From assembly GCA_021775005.1 (NCBI GenBank), contig JAJFIK010000080.1, positions 2,014 through 66,013 of the forward strand: 64,000 nt of DNA, written 5' to 3'. Under the pieces are notes generated by a model that was given only the letters and a program-made list of their open reading frames with translations, did no database searches and was not told where the DNA came from. The stretch comes from Rhodospirillales bacterium (lineage in GTDB: Bacteria; Pseudomonadota; Alphaproteobacteria; JAJFIK01). The position numbers were made by a program, and so were the translations under genes. Every line of letters begins with the position of its first letter. Within the stretch, counting starts at the first letter, position 1. Below are positions 3,797 through 38,142 of this stretch, in pieces.

Positions 3797-4103
3797 ACCG
3801 GGGTTTGCGGCGCGCTACGGGCTATTGCCACTATAATCACCCAGTACTCATCTTCATCCCGCCCGGTGCACCATTTTATATAAGCCATTGATTTTAGATG
3901 GTATATCATTTTGGCAATTTAGCTTCATTTCTAAGTACTGATACTATTGGACCTTGGTTCTAAGCACTGACAGGTACTTATGGTCATTGGAATTATTCCC
4001 GTACTGAGTTATGTAGCGACTATCTACGGGTGTTAATTTTTAAGGTCTGAAATTCGCCAATTGCGATCATTAGAACGCACCGCAAAGAACGACTGATTTT
4101 GCG

Positions 4104-4730
4104 TCAATCGTTGTCAAAAACATAACTGAATTTCTTAATAAGGATTGCATTTCTATTCGCCACTAGCATCTTTGTCTCTGTGTCATAGTAGCGAGCATAG
4201 TGATCGCGCTGAGACCGATTCACTTGCGGTAGTGGTGTTTCCAAATCAAAGGCATCGCGAAAGTCCTCCTCAAGGTTTTCAAAAGTGGCTATGGTATCAA
4301 CTTTGAAGTTGTAACCATTCGGATGCAAGTGTTCCCAAGGTGTAATCTGGGTGTGGTAAGCGACATAGGCCAACGGTGTGACGAACTTTGTTGGGTACTG
4401 GAGAATAGTCGCTCTTTGCCAATCACCTAAAACGAATTCTCGAAACGTTGGTGGATTTCTATACGCAGGCTTATTTTCTGCCACATGCAAATAGCTGGAA
4501 ACGGTCCAATCCCAAGGGTTTCTGACGAAAGCGACCGTGCGGTATTTGCGTAATGGCTTTTCGAGTTGTTTACTGAGTTGCGAAACGCAAGGTTCGGCCA
4601 CATTCATTTCCCGCACCGGATAGGCGACTGCATCCGGTTGCGATCGCAACAGCCTACTTATCGATCCACCAGCAGTTTTAGGGACGTGTACAAAAAGCAG
4701 ATTTCGATCTTTGAGCAGAATGCTGACCAT
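4104..4730 (-). CDS. Sulfotransferase family protein (PAPS-dependent, Sulfotransfer_2/3-like) on a low-GC islet
   Basis: N-terminal FVHVPKTAGGS motif (5'-PSB-like PKTGG) plus a downstream RNPWDW motif. The gene is about 47% GC against a window average of about 62%, and it has no clear Shine-Dalgarno. Confidence 0.6.
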   Translation of the reverse strand: MVSILLKDRNLLFVHVPKTAGGSISRLLRSQPDAVAYPVREMNVAEPCVSQLSKQLEKPLRKYRTVAFVRNPWDWTVSSYLHVAENKPAYRNPPTFREFVLGDWQRATILQYPTKFVTPLAYVAYHTQITPWEHLHPNGYNFKVDTIATFENLEEDFRDAFDLETPLPQVNRSQRDHYARYYDTETKMLVANRNAILIKKFSYVFDND

Positions 4731-5257
4731 GAATCGAATTATATCAGATTCTAGCTGCCAAAAATATTAGCCAAGTATTGTATGGGAACTCAAATCAACA
4801 TTAAGGTGTTTGCAGTAGAGCGGCATCTTCGGGCCAATTTTAGCGGTTTAACTCCCTAGCCCAAACCCCCATTTCATCCCAAACTTGGTTCAAATTCTTG
4901 TTGGGATAGGACACCATTTCGCCAAACATTTGATTTTTCTCAGCTATTTGACTTCTCAGTTTGGTTCGTGAACAGAATAATTTGTGTGTTGCTTTGATTT
5001 TGCTTTGTTTTCCTGGTTCTAATCTCTTTAGGCTTAGGTTTATTGGGAACCTTGGAGAAGATATTGATGGATAGAAATGAACCGCGGCGCGTTCTACTGA
5101 TGACAGAGAATTGGCGCGGAACCGAAGAAGAAAAGTTAGACTATTTGGAACTTCTTTGGTGAGTGATGCAACAACTTGTTGATGATGCCTTTAGTGGCGA
5201 GGGATCGTCCAGTAGGTAATTTGTGGTATCCCGTGAACAAGTGTTTCATTTATTGAG

Positions 5258-6457
5258 CTAATTGAAGGAAAACCTATCCCGATTGGCGAGCGTCAACATT
5301 AGTTCTTTAAGTGGCGTGATCCAGATACCATTTGGAATTTGATAGGGCTCATTGCCTGGATAGACTATGTACCTGTGCTTGATTTTGAGGTCATCACACG
5401 CAATATGAAACCCCTTTCCTGCCTTAGGTGCCGAGGCACGTTTGATCTCAATGGCAATCTCTGGTTTTCCTCCCCGCTCTAGTACCAGATCAATTTCCGC
5501 ACCACTCTGTGTGCGGTAAAAATACGGCCTGTATTGGTGAACATTGTTCTCATCAATTAGATTTTCGATGACAAACCCCTCCCAGCTATTGCCCAAGACC
5601 GGGTGGCTCAAGAGATTCTCAATGTTTGAAATTCCCAGGAGAGCATGTAACAGCCCGCTATCGCGTATGTAAACTTTGGGAGATTTTACAAGTCGTTTTC
5701 CAATATTTCCATGCCAGGGTTGCAGTCGCCTCACAAGGAGTAGATCAACGAGAATGTCTAAATATCGAGCAATGCTTTGGCCACTAACGCCCAACCCTTT
5801 TGCAAGCGATGCCGCGTTGAGAATAGAACCCTGGTGATGAGCAAGCATTGTCCAAAATCGTCTTAGCGTTTCAGCTGGTATTCTAAATCCAAACTGAGGA
5901 ACGTCTCTTTCCAAATAGCTTCGAATAAGATCATTGCGCCATTGCAGACTGATATTATCATTGCTGGCTACAAGGCTTTCTGGGAAGCCGCCGCGTACCC
6001 AGAGTGTTTGCTCATCAGTTAATTGATTTTTTTGAGTTTCAATTTCTAGCAAGTCGATTCCTGAAAGCTCGGCATATGCAATGCGTCCAGCCAAGCTCTC
6101 ACTTGTCTGGTTGAGGAGTTCCAGTGATGCCGATCCTAAAAAGAGAAATTGACCTGTTTTCTGACCTTTTCGTCTCCGTCGATCAATGATTCCGCGCAAG
6201 GGAGCAAAGAGTTCTGGAAGGCGTTGTACCTCATCCAATATGATGAGTTGATCAGGGTACTGATCTTGGAAGAGCTCAATGTCTCTTACCTGATCCAGGT
6301 CACGAGGGTTTTCTAGATCTCGATAGATTGCGTTCTTTTTTTCTGCGATTTCGAGGGCAAGTGTTGTTTTCCCAATTTGCCTCGGTCCCATCAGAGCTAC
6401 CGTGGCATTGGTCTCAAGTAGGTATTTCAGGTGGTTTTCTAGCCGTCTTGGTATCAT
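5258..6457 (-). CDS. AAA+ superfamily ATPase with C-terminal DUF4143 (COG1373-type)
   Basis: Walker A GPRQIGKTT and Walker B IILDEVQ are present. The length (399 aa) and C-terminal region are typical of AAA_14+DUF4143 proteins. GC is low, continuous with the sulfotransferase islet. Confidence 0.7.
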   Translation of the reverse strand: MIPRRLENHLKYLLETNATVALMGPRQIGKTTLALEIAEKKNAIYRDLENPRDLDQVRDIELFQDQYPDQLIILDEVQRLPELFAPLRGIIDRRRRKGQKTGQFLFLGSASLELLNQTSESLAGRIAYAELSGIDLLEIETQKNQLTDEQTLWVRGGFPESLVASNDNISLQWRNDLIRSYLERDVPQFGFRIPAETLRRFWTMLAHHQGSILNAASLAKGLGVSGQSIARYLDILVDLLLVRRLQPWHGNIGKRLVKSPKVYIRDSGLLHALLGISNIENLLSHPVLGNSWEGFVIENLIDENNVHQYRPYFYRTQSGAEIDLVLERGGKPEIAIEIKRASAPKAGKGFHIACDDLKIKHRYIVYPGNEPYQIPNGIWITPLKELMLTLANRDRFSFN

Positions 6458-6509
6458 CCTTGAAATTATACCATGTTATGGAAGAAATGCAAGGATAAAA
6501 TATTTTCTA

Positions 6510-29655: not shown

Positions 29656-29684
29656 ACCGCCTCTGAGCGGTTTTCGTTTCATTT
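29656..29684 (+). terminator. Possible intrinsic terminator after dcd
   Basis: ACCGC-ctctga-GCGGT stem-loop (5 bp) followed by UUUCGUUUCAUUU. Confidence 0.35.
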
Positions 29685-29719
29685 CGGGACGAGACAAGTT
29701 GGCATGGGCCTTGCGACCC

Positions 29720-29760
29720 GTTTGGGCGATGCGAGCGAAATATCGCTGCGCGACCCAAAC
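29720..29760 (+). promoter_or_regulatory. Extended hairpin in the 5' leader of the first repeat-protein gene
   Basis: GUUUGGG...CCCAAAC forms an outer 7-bp stem that encloses a GCG-A-GCGA/UCGC-UG-CGC inner stem. It ends 20 nt before the AAGGA RBS and ATG at 29781. Confidence 0.3.
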
Positions 29761-29780
29761 AGAATGTAAGGACGAAACCA

Positions 29781-30443
29781 ATGAAGCGCATTCTTTTCAG
29801 CACCGCCGCGCTGATTGCGGTAATCGCAGCGGCCCCTGCCTTGGCGCAGGACAACAACAATATCATTAACGGCCAGATCAATCTGGGCGATGTCTGGGCC
29901 GGCATGGACATGGCGGTTTATGATGCCGGGTATGTGGAAGGCACCGCAGCGGCCATCGGCAATAGTTTCTCTGCTGAACTTGGCGGCGATAGCGGCGTTT
30001 GGACAAACCAACGCACCACCGGCGCGATCGAATCCAGCCTCAATGCCACGGTTGACTGGACAGAGGATGTCACTCTGACCTCCGCTGCGGTTGGCAACAC
30101 CGTATCGATCCTTAGCGAACCTTATCTTGATTGCGGCGTGGACGATTGTCCTTACGACGACGCGAGCCTTGAGCTCGATAACCGTCAGTATGTGAATTAT
30201 GACCCCACCGCGACCCTGACAATTTGGGCCAACGGTGTTGGCCATCTGAACGGCACCGCCGCGGCCATTGGCAACAGCCTGTCGGTTGAAGCATGGAACC
30301 ACGAAAACAATATCGATACACGCCAAGTGGTGAATGACGATGTGAACTCCTATGTTGGCGCAGCTGTGTCTGGCGCGGACAGCGTCACCCTGACGTCGGC
30401 TGCCGTTGGCAATACGGTCTCCATCGACAACTTGATGGACTAA
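29781..30443 (+). CDS. Secreted repeat protein, paralog 1 (alternating GTAAAIGNS(F/L)S and TSAAVGNTVSI units; curlin/adhesin-like)
   Basis: Sec signal peptide MKRILFSTAALIAVIAAAPALA|QDNN with AAGGA RBS. It has two ~100-aa internal repeat units. It is rich in G/N/S/T/A, consistent with an extracellular beta-rich protein. Confidence 0.75.
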   Translation: MKRILFSTAALIAVIAAAPALAQDNNNIINGQINLGDVWAGMDMAVYDAGYVEGTAAAIGNSFSAELGGDSGVWTNQRTTGAIESSLNATVDWTEDVTLTSAAVGNTVSILSEPYLDCGVDDCPYDDASLELDNRQYVNYDPTATLTIWANGVGHLNGTAAAIGNSLSVEAWNHENNIDTRQVVNDDVNSYVGAAVSGADSVTLTSAAVGNTVSIDNLMD

Positions 30444-30503
30444 GGACAAACAGGTGGGGCGCGAGTTGAATTGCGCCCTACCGTTTTGCTGCAAGGGCAC
30501 CCC

Positions 30504-31193
30504 ATGATGAAACGCAAATCTGTCTCCATCTTCTGCATAGGGGCGCTATTGTCCTCAATGGTTAGCGGTGTTGCATTTGCCGCAGACGACAATGACATTA
30601 TCAATGGTCAATTGAATCTTTCGCAAATCTCAGCGGGTATGGACATGATTGTCTATGACGCTGATGGGTATGTTTCCGGCACCTCCGCCGCCATCGGCAA
30701 TAGTTTCAGTGGTGAACTGGGCGGCTTTTCCCATGTGGTGAATAACCAGCGAACCGTTGGTGCCATTGACGCCAAGCTGGATTTCACCGGCGGCAATATT
30801 GAGGGAATGACGTTAATCTCGGCTGCGGTGGGCAACACGGCGTCCATCGTCTCTGACGCGCGTATCCCGAGCCCGGATAACAAGGTCGTTGAATGCCCTG
30901 AAAAATTTTACGGCATTGATGTACACAATCGTCAGGTGGTGGAAGTGGACCCAACAGCGACGCTGTATTTCAACGTTTCCGGTGTTGGATATACGGACGG
31001 CATCGCCGCCGCCATCGGTAACAGCCTCTCTATTGAAGGTTATGGCCATACCAATTTAGTTGATACGACGCAGATTGTGCGTGACCGGGTCAGCTCATAT
31101 GTGGGGGCAACGGTGTCTGGGGCCGCTGGGGTCAGCGCCACGTCTGCAGCTGTGGGCAATACGGTATCAATAGACAATTTGATCAATAATTAG
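30504..31193 (+). CDS. Secreted repeat protein, paralog 2 (same repeat architecture)
   Basis: Signal peptide MMKRKSVSIFCIGALLSSMVSGVAFA|ADDND. It is collinear with paralog 1 and shows roughly 45-55% identity by eye (IINGQ[IL]NL, AAAIGNSFS, SAAVGNT, DPTATL, AAAIGNSLS, SYVGA.VSGA, TSAAVGNTVSIDNL). Confidence 0.75.
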   Translation: MMKRKSVSIFCIGALLSSMVSGVAFAADDNDIINGQLNLSQISAGMDMIVYDADGYVSGTSAAIGNSFSGELGGFSHVVNNQRTVGAIDAKLDFTGGNIEGMTLISAAVGNTASIVSDARIPSPDNKVVECPEKFYGIDVHNRQVVEVDPTATLYFNVSGVGYTDGIAAAIGNSLSIEGYGHTNLVDTTQIVRDRVSSYVGATVSGAAGVSATSAAVGNTVSIDNLINN

Positions 31194-31230
31194 AAACACC
31201 TGCGCGTCGCAACACGGGCAAGGCAATGAA

Positions 31231-31263
31231 GGGGCGGATGGCCAAACATCCGCCTCTTTTTTT
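31231..31263 (+). terminator. Rho-independent terminator after the paralog pair
   Basis: GGGGCGGAUG-gccaaa-CAUCCGCC stem followed by UCUUUUUUUGG. Confidence 0.75.
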
Positions 31264-31312
31264 GGTTCAATTGCCGGGGCGAAGTTAAACCAAGTTGCAA
31301 CAGGTCGATTAA

Positions 31313-33922: not shown

Positions 33923-34690
33923 GTGATCTCAATGAATATGCTGGGATCATGGGTCAAACGTTTTGCGCTACTATTTGGCTATGAAATTCGCAGTTTGTCT
34001 AAAAGCCCTTACCCTTATGGATATGAGCTTTGGCAGGACGCTGTGAGGTTGAGTGCCATTTTGAATTGGCCGGTAGAGGTCGTCTTCGATGTCGGTGCGA
34101 ATAACGGCTCAACGACTCAAGTGGTTTTGGACAAATTCCCCGAGGCGAATGTGTTCGCGTTTGAGCCCAATCCGCCCACCTTTGCGCGGCTGCTGAAAGC
34201 TGTGCCGGACAAAAGAGCTACCCAACTGCCAATCGCATTGAGTGACACCAGTGGCGCGCTGCCGTTCTATGATTACGCAGAAAGCGATCTGATCGGAAGC
34301 CTTGCCGCAAATGCGGGCTATTCAAAGGGAAGCGGCTTCAAGCCGAGGGAAATAACCGTCGACTGCTCGACCGTCGATCAAGTTTGCAGGGATCACGACA
34401 TTGATCGGATCAGTGTTCTAAAAATTGATGCAGAGGGTGCAGATTTTGCGGTGCTTCGCGGGGCTGAACGAATGCTGCGTAACGCAGCTATTGATTTTGT
34501 CTATTTTGAGTTCAACGATTATGCCACGCCGCCTGATATAGACGGCGGAGGGCTTGGCGAAATCTGCGAGTGGCTTCACGGTTTTGGATTTAGGCTTGTC
34601 GCAACCTACACAGATCGTATCGATTATACGGACGATGAGTTGTTTGTTATTTCAAACGCGCTCATGGTTCGTCCCAACCGGCTGAGTTAA
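33923..34690 (+). CDS. FkbM-family methyltransferase (lower GC)
   Basis: VVFDVGANNGSTT SAM-binding motif and an FkbM-like C-terminus. The gene is about 50% GC against a local background of about 62%. Confidence 0.8.
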   Translation: MISMNMLGSWVKRFALLFGYEIRSLSKSPYPYGYELWQDAVRLSAILNWPVEVVFDVGANNGSTTQVVLDKFPEANVFAFEPNPPTFARLLKAVPDKRATQLPIALSDTSGALPFYDYAESDLIGSLAANAGYSKGSGFKPREITVDCSTVDQVCRDHDIDRISVLKIDAEGADFAVLRGAERMLRNAAIDFVYFEFNDYATPPDIDGGGLGEICEWLHGFGFRLVATYTDRIDYTDDELFVISNALMVRPNRLS

Positions 34691-34767: not shown

Positions 34768-34842
34768 GCGGGTGTAGCTCAGTGGTAGAGCATCAGCTTC
34801 CCAAGCTGAGGGCCGTGGGTTCGATCCCCATCACCCGCTCCA
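34768..34842 (+). tRNA. tRNA-Gly (anticodon CCC)
   Basis: Cloverleaf read from the sequence: acceptor GCGGGUG/CACCCGC, D-arm GCUC...GAGC, anticodon stem UCAGC/GCUGA with loop UUCCCAA, T-loop UUCGAUC, and an encoded 3' CCA. Confidence 0.9.
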
Positions 34843-36610: not shown

Positions 36611-37315
36611 ATGGTTAACACTTTGGAAATTCAGCTTTTCAGTTTCCCGTCAGGCGCGGCCAAGGCCACGGGCGCCACCATCATCATTGATGTTTTTCGC
36701 GCCTTCACCACGGCGACCTATGCCTTTGCGTCGGGGGCGAGCGAGATCATCATGGTGGGTGAGCTTGATGAGGCGCTGGCGTTGAAAACATCAGGCCGCG
36801 TTGATTTCAGTATTGGCGAGCGCGAGGGGCTGATGCCCCCTGGCTTTGACTTTGGAAACTCGCCGACCGCCATGCGGGACGCGGATTTCTCAGGCCAACG
36901 CCTGGCGCTGACCACCTCTAATGGGACCAAAGCCATGCTGGCTGCCACGGCGGCGGCGCGGCGCTTCACCGGCGCGCTGGTCAATTTAACCGCAACCGTC
37001 AATGCCGCCGGCGTGAGGGCCGAGGCGCTGTCCATTGTCGCTGCGGGCCGCAAGGGCACCATCAAAGCGGATGAAGATGAGCTCTGCGCCGGTCTTATGC
37101 GCAATCATGCCCTGGGTCTTGAGATGGACCACCCCGCGGTTCGCGCGCATTTGCAGGCGCATTTCCTCAATGAGGCTTTTTTGGCCTCGCGGGCGAAGTT
37201 TGGCCCCTCCAGTGATTGGGAGCTTGCGTGCGACGTTGACAGGTTTGACTTTGCCATTGAGGTCCGCCAAGAGGGGGGCCTTCTGGTGGCGCGCGCAGAT
37301 TGCGCCCATTTTTGA
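36611..37315 (+). CDS. comB: 2-phosphosulfolactate phosphatase (ComB family)
   Basis: 2-phosphosulfolactate phosphatase family pattern (IIIDVFRAFTTATYAFASGA). Length is 234 aa. It lies immediately upstream of a ComA homolog. Confidence 0.7.
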   Translation: MVNTLEIQLFSFPSGAAKATGATIIIDVFRAFTTATYAFASGASEIIMVGELDEALALKTSGRVDFSIGEREGLMPPGFDFGNSPTAMRDADFSGQRLALTTSNGTKAMLAATAAARRFTGALVNLTATVNAAGVRAEALSIVAAGRKGTIKADEDELCAGLMRNHALGLEMDHPAVRAHLQAHFLNEAFLASRAKFGPSSDWELACDVDRFDFAIEVRQEGGLLVARADCAHF

Positions 37316-37335
37316 TTGCGTAGAAGGTAAGGGTT

Positions 37336-38142
37336 ATGCCGTCCATTCCGTTTGATTTGCCGCCGCGGAGCCAAAAGCCGCGCTCCAAAGGCTTCACCAA
37401 CGCGCTTGATAGCGGGCTTGGGGTGCGCGCCATTGAAGACACGCTGGAGGTTTGCGCCGCGTACACAGACGTTGTGAAACTGGGCTGGGGCACGGCGCAG
37501 CTGACGCCAAATCTTGCTGAAAAACTTGCGGTCTATCACCGCTTTGATGTGGCCACCTGTCCTGGGGGGCTGATGTTTGAGCTATCCTATTGGCAGAACA
37601 AGACAGATGCCTACGCAAGTTTCGCCGCCGACATGGGCTTTTCCTATGTGGAGGTCTCCAACGGCTCGCTCCCGATCCCGGAACTTGAGAAATGCCGCCA
37701 GGTGGAAGCGCTGACGAGCAAGGGCTTTAAGGTCCTCTCCGAAGTGGGGAGCAAGGATGCCGATTTTGTCATGGCCCCCGATGCATGGGTATCAGCAATC
37801 AAGGATGATCTCAGCGCAGGGGCGTTCAAAGTCATTGTCGAAGGGCGCGCAGATGCCAGCGCTGGGATCTATGGCGCTGACGGCAAGGTACGCGGCGATG
37901 CCATCGACGCCATCTTGAGTTCAGGTATCGATCCAGATCGGTTGATCTTTGAGGCGCCGTTTAAGCCGCAGATGATTTTCTTTGTCACCAAGCTGGGGCC
38001 GGACGTGAATGTGGGCAATGTGGCGCTGGGTGAGGTGTTAAATCTTGAGACACTGCGGCTTGGGTTGCGCGGTCACACCGTGGAGCATTTCTTTGCCCCT
38101 GATCACAAATCTGCCCACGAAGCAACAGCGATACAGACCTAG
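37336..38142 (+). CDS. comA: (2R)-phospho-3-sulfolactate synthase (ComA family)
   Basis: Strong collinear similarity to archaeal ComA as I recall it (GWGT, PGG.LFE, VE.S.GS, VIVEGRAD/ESG, LETLRLGLRGHT). Length is 268 aa. Confidence 0.85.
   Translation: MPSIPFDLPPRSQKPRSKGFTNALDSGLGVRAIEDTLEVCAAYTDVVKLGWGTAQLTPNLAEKLAVYHRFDVATCPGGLMFELSYWQNKTDAYASFAADMGFSYVEVSNGSLPIPELEKCRQVEALTSKGFKVLSEVGSKDADFVMAPDAWVSAIKDDLSAGAFKVIVEGRADASAGIYGADGKVRGDAIDAILSSGIDPDRLIFEAPFKPQMIFFVTKLGPDVNVGNVALGEVLNLETLRLGLRGHTVEHFFAPDHKSAHEATAIQT

Follow-up and report, generated by a model that had tools for sequence, protein, structure and literature searches.

Two adjacent genes in a 64-kb stretch of a Rhodospirillales bacterium genome (contig JAJFIK010000080.1, positions 2,014 to 66,013, hereafter the window) encode what we identify, with a probability of roughly 85%, as secreted solenoid proteins of the HfaD superfamily. 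We refer to the genes and their products as P1 (29781-30443, 220 amino acids [aa], from the list of open reading frames [ORFs] and homology) and P2 (30504-31193, 229 aa from the ATG at 30504); both lie on the + strand, as do their signal peptides and repeats, the promoter element, and the hairpins described below. They are a divergent, operon-less, and duplicated addition to a known small family of adhesion proteins, and we infer that they most likely serve as surface amyloid-like anchor or adhesin subunits exported via a CsgG/HfaB-type channel encoded elsewhere. An earlier note on this DNA had described two adjacent genes of 220 and 229 aa related by tandem duplication; the ORFs were confirmed at these coordinates, and pairwise protein alignment of P1 and P2 gave 56% identity over the full length (E 6e-79). 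The mechanically defined P2 ORF opens at TTG 30471, and we placed the start at ATG 30504 instead because an intergenic hairpin occupies the stretch at 30471. A ribosome-binding site, AAGGA, lies 8-12 nt 5′ of the P1 start codon.

When both proteins were scanned against NCBIfam, HfaD (NF037936) was the sole model matched by each of them, with 27.7 bits (E 1.6e-6) for P1 and 24.3 bits (E 1.7e-5) for P2. A search of a large protein collection, in which P2 is identical to entry P0007, returned 111 homologs of P1 and P2 at E≤1e-3. All 111 carry a precomputed match to PF27277 (HfaD), flagged "faint" or "weak" on P1 and P2 themselves, whereas PF27294 (HfaA) is matched by some homologs and on P2 orthologs only as "faint". 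With the HfaD models being the only curated ones to match, the holdfast-anchor hunch in the earlier note was borne out, and its suggestion of an unnamed, uncharacterized family gives way to a subfamily of HfaD with homology to the PF27277 repeat domain. A profile built from a 103-sequence alignment and searched against 1.84 billion representative proteins retrieved only 495 proteins (E≤1e-3), of which 299 reached E≤1e-10; their lengths span ~200 to ~1100 aa, and they include bona fide HfaD proteins of ~410 aa at E ~1e-21 to 1e-23.

Other families were searched as well. A local Pfam-A scan yielded only noise (TMEM65, GH109_C) because that copy predates PF27277 and PF27294. Neither Curlin_rpt nor the Hep_Hag and YadA_head families of trimeric autotransporters matched P1 or P2 in it even at E≤10, so the curlin-like character proposed earlier did not hold, and a sequence search of the PDB returned nothing at E≤10. 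A hidden Markov model built from nine HfaA proteins scored 17 and 12 bits against P1 and P2, covering the repeated motif only; with four units and no hfaB neighbor, membership in HfaA was ruled out. An outer-membrane beta-barrel was likewise rejected, as the proteins lack a C-terminal aromatic residue and all of their structural neighbors are solenoids.

Each protein begins with a Sec signal peptide, as the earlier note had read, comprising a basic n-region, a hydrophobic core, and an AxA cleavage site. By direct reading of the sequence, P1 opens with MKR and its hydrophobic core, with cleavage predicted between ALA and QD (residues 1-22, 29781-29846), and P2 opens with MMKRK and its core, with cleavage predicted between AFA and AD (residues 1-26, 30504-30581). 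No lipobox was seen in either signal peptide. The Ala residues at -3 and -1 are near-invariant among the 103 aligned homologs, such that P1 and P2 share with the HfaD system an N-terminal Sec signal whose AxA site is conserved family-wide. The signal peptide is followed by units 1-2, a short acidic Cys linker, and units 3-4. In P1, the repeat region (29853-30440) is divided into four units of ~45 aa each and a single linker: unit 1 (29853-29987, residues 25-69), unit 2 (29988-30119, residues 70-113), the acidic Cys-x4-Cys linker (30120-30167, residues 114-129), unit 3 (30168-30305, residues 130-175), and unit 4 (30306-30440, residues 176-220). The P2 counterparts are unit 1 (30591-30725, residues 30-74), unit 2 (30726-30857, residues 75-118), the linker (30858-30911, residues 119-136), unit 3 (30912-31049, residues 137-182), and unit 4 (31050-31190, residues 183-229). 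Both proteins end directly after unit 4, with no C-terminal membrane anchor.

The unit consensus over ~45 aa reads N-x-Q ... T-A-A-(I/V)-G-N-(S/T)-x-S. Comparison of the two halves of each protein gave 41% identity over 88 aa for P1 (E 2.6e-16) and 40% over 62 aa for P2 (E 8e-11), and a second, offset self-match (E 3.5e-5) indicated that each half is itself made of two related units. The internal duplication into two ~100-aa repeats described in the earlier note therefore stands, but it is better read as an A-B-A-B pairing of the four ~45-aa units that underlie both halves. The motif [TI][AS]AA[IV]GN[ST] recurs four times per protein, at spacings of 45/59/46 in P1 and 45/62/46 in P2; of the other motifs said to recur, DPTATL and SYVGAxVSGA occur once per protein. 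Residues invariant in every unit are, in P1, the Gln residues Q32, Q77, and Q182 by alignment and Q136 by position, and the Asn residues of the GN motif, N61, N106, N165, and N211. Contrary to the proposal of almost no charged stretches, mature P1 contains 28 D/E vs 3 K/R (net charge -25), and mature P2 has a net charge of -14. An acidic character is also found in the last tandem paralogs of two sister genomes (L002 10869-11756 and L007 9563-10606), where the signal peptide is set apart from the four-unit domain by an extremely acidic, low-complexity Gly/Asp spacer of up to ~120 aa, (GDG)n in one and (DGQDGA)n in the other.

AlphaFold2 models built with family alignments gave a mean confidence (predicted local distance difference test, pLDDT) of 87.1 and a predicted template modeling score (pTM) of 0.79 for P1, and 85.5 and 0.77 for P2. 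Only residues 1-21/22 fell below a pLDDT of 50 in both models, and low confidence was otherwise confined to the linker between the halves. According to DSSP, both models are all-beta, with four sets of strands of 10, 10, and 17 residues; turns of 1-4 residues join the units, and the ~17-residue strand of each unit carries TAAxGNSxS. Since the mature chain starts and finishes with repeat strands, there is no capping domain. We infer from these models a predicted beta-solenoid of four rungs, with one unit and three strands per rung, the invariant Asn and Gln residues of successive rungs aligned in register as ladders, and exposed ends that would be sticky, in line with the beta-solenoid anticipated in the earlier note. 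When both models were compared to the PDB with Foldseek, the top matches were all parallel beta-helices or solenoids. The first was the FapC amyloid fibril 9u4u_A (P1, E 1.8e-3 and probability 0.21; P2, E 6.8e-5 and probability 0.80), and the CsgA fibril was also among the matches. In FapC, each imperfect repeat of ~50 aa forms one cross-beta layer held by conserved Asn/Gln residues (PMC12392863). The ~50-aa spacing that had been regarded as an anomaly is thus not one, as FapC also has one imperfect repeat of ~45-50 aa per cross-beta layer.

Both genes are under strong purifying selection, as judged from comparison of coding sequences. With the sister genome L058 (GCA_025450675.1) as reference, the ratio of nonsynonymous to synonymous substitution rates (dN/dS) was 0.07 for P1, compared to 0.05 for dcd and 0.05 for apaG; P2 and its L058 ortholog differ at a nonsynonymous proportion (pN) of 0.17, with the synonymous proportion (pS) saturated. 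Because the P1 ratio resembles those of its neighbors and the pN of P2 is 0.17, we regard both as functional genes, and at least four genomes retain intact ORFs. At the DNA level the repeat copies are only 60-80% identical, which indicates that the duplications are old and rules out recent or recombining DNA repeats. A 273-aa ORF on the opposite strand (29679-30500, - strand) that spans all of P1 was rejected as a gene, being a shadow ORF opposite the Ala/Gly-rich coding strand.

The region upstream of P1 contains a sigma-54-type -24/-12 element, TGGCAT-N5-TTGCG (29700-29715), 65 nt 5′ of the P1 ATG. It agrees with the RpoN motif of Caulobacter, GGCNC-N4-CTTGC (PMC4287350). When the regions upstream of the first paralog were aligned for the window and three sister genomes (L058, L002, and L007), TGGCA[CT]-N5-TTGCGA was the sole conserved block, and across these four genomes the element recurs before seven paralogs. 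In L002 and L007, each paralog has its own copy following a hairpin and T-run. In the window and L058, the 60-nt spacer between P1 and P2 has no such element and contains a hairpin only. The fetched loci together contain 78 near-consensus sites; of these, 17 fall no more than ~115 nt 5′ of a same-strand ORF of the HfaD or HfaA type, where 1.5 were expected (binomial P ~1e-13, a generous value since the loci are related). In Maricaulis, Oceanicaulis, Caulobacter, and uncultured lineages, such sites directly precede the start of hfaA or hfaD, for instance at L012 9927-9941, L015 9840-9854, L032 5587-5601, L042 9941-9955, L047 9586-9600 (- strand), L029 3941-3955 (- strand), and L050 9946-9960, among others. 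This enrichment points to widespread, if so far predicted, RpoN control of holdfast-anchor genes. The hfaA promoter of C. crescentus may itself contain a sigma-54-like sequence; a literature search on this promoter and sigma-54 found nothing, with older journal papers beyond its reach.

Three hairpins lie in and around the putative transcript. A weak terminator-like hairpin with a T-rich tail (29656-29680; stem 29656-29671, tail TTTTCGTTT) follows dcd and separates the gene pair from it. Between the genes lies a hairpin with a 12-bp stem and a weak T-tail (30453-30492; hairpin 30453-30482, followed by GTTTTGCTGC); a hairpin and T-run occupy the same position between P1 and P2 in L058, L002, and L007 with differing stem sequences, and we consider that the element is probably a leaky terminator or attenuator. 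A strong intrinsic terminator with a 13-bp stem, followed by TTTTTTTGG, ends the two-gene unit (31228-31266). From this layout, sigma-54 likely drives a single transcript of P1 and P2 that is partly terminated after P1, such that P1 would be made in excess over P2.

The location of the pair is conserved. In the window, L058, L002, and L007, the gene order is Hsp33, (M20 peptidase), TrkH, ApaG, dcd, two to three HfaD-like genes, and a Urate_ox_N membrane protein; the neighboring proteins are 62-95% identical across these genomes and the HfaD-like proteins only 47-86%. Essentially all genes of the window were annotated by Pfam and have ordinary chromosomal functions, with no secretion, holdfast-synthesis, or sigma-54 activator genes among them. 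A scan of one genome per species, run with a smaller alignment than the 103-sequence one, yielded 48 loci, which belong to Maricaulis, Oceanicaulis, Caulobacter, Brevundimonas, Geminicoccaceae, Micropepsaceae, a Sphingomonas, Alkalilacustris, and a Myxococcales metagenome-assembled genome (MAG). At about 38 of the 48, the HfaD-like gene has a CsgG-family neighbor no more than ~2 kb away, but not here. The closest relatives outside the window clade (L057 and L056) are 216-219 aa long with four units and 38-41% identity, and are encoded in hfaA-CsgG(hfaB)-hfaD operons. In a neighbor-joining tree, which lacks bootstrap support and should be weighed lightly, the window clade is monophyletic relative to these CsgG-linked short forms, and P1-type and P2-type proteins are sister groups inside the window sub-lineage.

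Tandem HfaD-like paralogs are frequent in the family: L011, L015, L025, L034, and L049 each hold between two and four copies. Arrays of three to four HfaD-like genes of ~600-800 aa occur in Geminicoccaceae bacterium 1502E (L025 9131-17945 and L049 3489-11668, the latter on a plasmid) and, outside Alphaproteobacteria, in the Myxococcales MAG (L034 5039-9287). L025 and L049 have no CsgG within 10 kb, and a CsgG-linked locus (L036) lies elsewhere in the same genome. Marinimicrococcus (L038, L041, and L051) likewise has an HfaB-linked locus together with unlinked HfaD-like paralog loci. Since HfaB-linked genomes carry extra unlinked HfaD-like loci, the use of HfaB in trans has precedent.

According to published work on HfaD, HfaA and HfaD are cell-surface proteins that require the CsgG-like lipoprotein HfaB and depend on each other; they form heat- and sodium dodecyl sulfate (SDS)-resistant multimers that retain the holdfast polysaccharide, which is shed on deletion of the anchor genes, and anchoring requires deacetylation of the polysaccharide (bioRxiv 10.1101/2022.07.20.500906; PMC6707917). 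The structure of the anchor and the polymerization of HfaA and HfaD are still unsolved in the literature (PMC6707917; bioRxiv 10.1101/2022.07.20.500906). By extension, P1 and P2 subunits would be exported unfolded by Sec, pass the outer membrane by way of a CsgG-like HfaB channel supplied from elsewhere in the genome, and stack end to end on the cell surface into SDS-resistant, amyloid-like polymers, so that their location is presumably extracellular. Such polymers might contain P1 alone or both P1 and P2, the latter at a lower level through read-through of the hairpin. Through their very acidic surface, they might tether or bind an adhesive polysaccharide, possibly partly deacetylated and hence cationic, to the envelope, the role that HfaA and HfaD have for the Caulobacter holdfast. 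Expression would need sigma-54 together with an enhancer-binding protein and would thereby be coupled to a developmental or surface program. We give this HfaB-dependent surface-anchor mechanism about an even chance of being correct for P1 and P2.

HfaA proteins encoded beside CsgG/HfaB contain exactly one HfaD unit (TAAAIGNSVxI…NxTIIINQxNTG) after a nonrepetitive N-terminal part, for instance at L057 8442-8897, L056 9189-9659 (- strand), L047 9118-9570 (- strand), L012 9009-9503 (- strand), and L005 8577-8975, among others. Because HfaA carries one HfaD repeat unit, the two are homologous at the unit level. By analogy with CsgB and CsgA, HfaA could act as a template or cap when HfaD stacks, which would account for the reported mutual dependence of HfaA and HfaD.

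Several results weigh against the assignment and the proposed role of P1 and P2. Both proteins score far below the 100-bit equivalog cutoff of NF037936, which is exceeded by P0328, P0353, and P0323 (410-412 aa; 249, 173, and 140 bits), and pairwise alignment of P1 with canonical HfaD shows motif-level similarity only (E 0.015). As the family profile reaches HfaD yet the curated scores fall short, we place P1 and P2 in the HfaD superfamily, not among its equivalogs. The solenoid geometry was derived from DSSP strings and match lists rather than inspected coordinates. The FapC match has a template modeling score (TM-score) of only 0.15-0.25 with a root-mean-square deviation of 17-21 Å, and for this reason we take it as local 3Di resemblance, not as a superposable known fold. 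The -24/-12 element is the sole match to TGGCAY-N5-TTGCR in the 64-kb window, but at least one sigma-54 consensus match occurred in 41 of 100 shuffles, so the lone match is not significant. No CsgG/HfaB or HfaA homolog was found in the window by tblastn or Pfam annotation, nor CsgG or HfaA within 10 kb in L002, L007, and L058; the absence of an adjacent CsgG/HfaB-like gene was already remarked in the earlier note, and the pair thus lies outside any hfaA-hfaB-hfaD operon or cluster over that range. Finally, holdfast production by this lineage is assumed.

The missing hfaB neighbor leads to the alternative that P1 and P2 are HfaB-independent envelope proteins in a clade that has left both the hfa system and the holdfast, either as periplasmic or outer-membrane-associated acidic beta-solenoids, for example with a cation-binding or structural role, or as proteins that use another export route for a purpose apart from holdfast. 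Four genomes that share only 62-95% identity in their housekeeping proteins have kept the unlinked position between dcd and Urate_ox_N, the clade forms a monophyletic group apart from CsgG-linked forms in the neighbor-joining tree, its linker is Cys-containing, acidic, and clade-specific, its net charges run from -11 to -34 vs a family median of -8, and a motif scan of the GTDB representative OFTM99 found no second HfaD-like locus. Against this, the full-length four-unit architecture equals that of operon-encoded HfaD, the hfa-type sigma-54 element has been kept, open solenoid ends would tend to aggregate in the periplasm, and other genomes hold unlinked HfaD-like paralogs beside an HfaB locus. 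We consider this alternative the main rival, though an unlikely one. Further from our expectation, and improbable as a whole, is the joint proposal that the pair forms a self-contained, sigma-54-driven, two-subunit functional amyloid outside the hfaA/hfaB operon that is exported and assembled without the HfaB channel. P1 would then be the major stacking subunit and P2, produced by read-through, its nucleator or cap, by analogy with CsgB for CsgA and HfaA for HfaD, and the lineage may not build a classical holdfast.

The remaining alternatives fared worse. That P1 and P2 are strict curli-type (CsgA/CsgB) or Fap-type (FapC/FapB) amyloid subunits might be expected from FapC being the top PDB match of both models, with the CsgA fibril listed too, and from G-N and Q motifs that recall curlin repeats. 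It is largely refuted and very unlikely given the lack of any Curlin_rpt or other meaningful Pfam match at E≤10 and of any PDB sequence match, a unit length of 45 aa vs ~22 aa, the absence of csgEFG or fapF-like genes from the window, and TM-scores of at most 0.25. Ice-binding proteins, pectate lyases, and tapirins did appear among the weak Foldseek matches, but all at E>0.1, probability ≤0.03, and TM-score <0.15, and neither Pfam nor NCBIfam gave a catalytic or ice-binding family match; with homology pointing to HfaD, a beta-helical ice-binding or carbohydrate-active (lyase-like) secreted protein is slightly less credible again. Lastly, the sole point in favor of decaying or non-expressed, functionless duplicates is that partner genes are lacking nearby; a dN/dS of 0.07, ORFs intact in at least four genomes, and conservation of the promoter, ribosome-binding site, and terminators refute this reading and leave it a next to negligible chance.

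Some further features of the window lie apart from the gene pair. An FkbM-family methyltransferase gene lies a few kb 3′ of the HfaD-like genes in the window (33923-34690), L002 (12906-14589), and L058 (17177-17938), and in L002 it adjoins a GT2 glycosyltransferase gene, a weak hint at a linked glycan-modification function. A single tRNA gene (34768-34839, + strand), the sole Rfam match, is flanked by the genes for the FkbM-type methyltransferase and a hybrid histidine kinase. Adjoining comB-like (2-phosphosulfolactate phosphatase) and comA-like (phosphosulfolactate synthase) genes at 36611-38142 imply sulfolactate or coenzyme-M-type chemistry in an alphaproteobacterium. Positions 4001-6500, with a G+C content of 0.44 vs ~0.56 elsewhere, contain a sulfotransferase-family gene (4104-4730) and an AAA_14/DUF4143 ATPase gene (5258-6457) and may be a small acquired island.

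Taken together, the placement of P1 and P2 in the HfaD superfamily is an annotation-level advance with structural leads, and current understanding stands. As short, regular four-unit proteins with confident models, they offer a minimal and tractable form of the HfaD repeat and a testable picture of one ~45-aa unit per cross-beta layer, ladders of Asn and Gln, and uncapped ends, and the orphan duplicated pair is a natural test of whether HfaD-type subunits work apart from hfaAB. The family is also broader than Caulobacterales, extending to Geminicoccaceae and Micropepsaceae as well as a Sphingomonas, a Rhodobacterales genome, and a Myxococcales MAG, and CsgG almost always accompanies it. If the pair did prove to be an HfaB-free two-subunit amyloid, its acidic four-rung solenoid of 45 residues per layer would add a third architecture to the bacterial functional amyloids, alongside curli and Fap.

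Among known systems, HfaD of Caulobacter crescentus and Hirschia baltica (NF037936, PF27277) resembles P1 and P2 in profile-level homology, a Sec signal, and units of ~45 aa with an A-A-x-G-N-S core. A sigma-54-type element lies upstream of P1 as it does at many hfa loci in the fetched genomes, and a surface multimer function is presumably common to both. However, P1 and P2 have four regular units in 220-229 aa, whereas HfaD has roughly eight or nine degenerate units in ~410 aa, and they differ further in lying outside an hfaA-hfaB-hfaD operon, in their tandem duplication, in being much more acidic, and in their Cys-containing linker. Closer still are the short HfaD proteins of Micropepsaceae and other uncultured Alphaproteobacteria (P0047 at L057 and P0057 at L056), which have the same length and four units in the same order, share 38-41% full-length identity with the window proteins, and are their nearest outgroup in the tree. 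Unlike the window pair, they occur either as single copies or alongside a paralog of 311-325 aa, directly beside HfaA and CsgG/HfaB. HfaA (PF27294), characteristically a protein of ~120-160 aa whose gene stands upstream of hfaB, shares one copy of the HfaD-type unit, but it is a single C-terminal unit after a nonrepetitive N-terminal part.

The resemblance to the Pseudomonas amyloid FapC (PDB 9u4u; PMC12392863) is of another kind. Like P1 and P2, FapC is secreted and built of imperfect ~45-50-aa repeats, with conserved Asn/Gln in each layer and no capping domains; one cross-beta layer is predicted per repeat, and FapC was reproducibly the best Foldseek match. In contrast, no sequence homology was detected and the TM-score is ≤0.25; FapC has a five-strand Greek key per layer vs three strands in the P1 and P2 models, and three layers with long linkers vs four contiguous layers, and the Fap system exports through FapF, not CsgG. 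The curlins CsgA and CsgB have a G-N/Q flavor and CsgG-dependent export, but their repeats are ~22 aa long vs the 45-aa period here and their Curlin_rpt model is unmatched.

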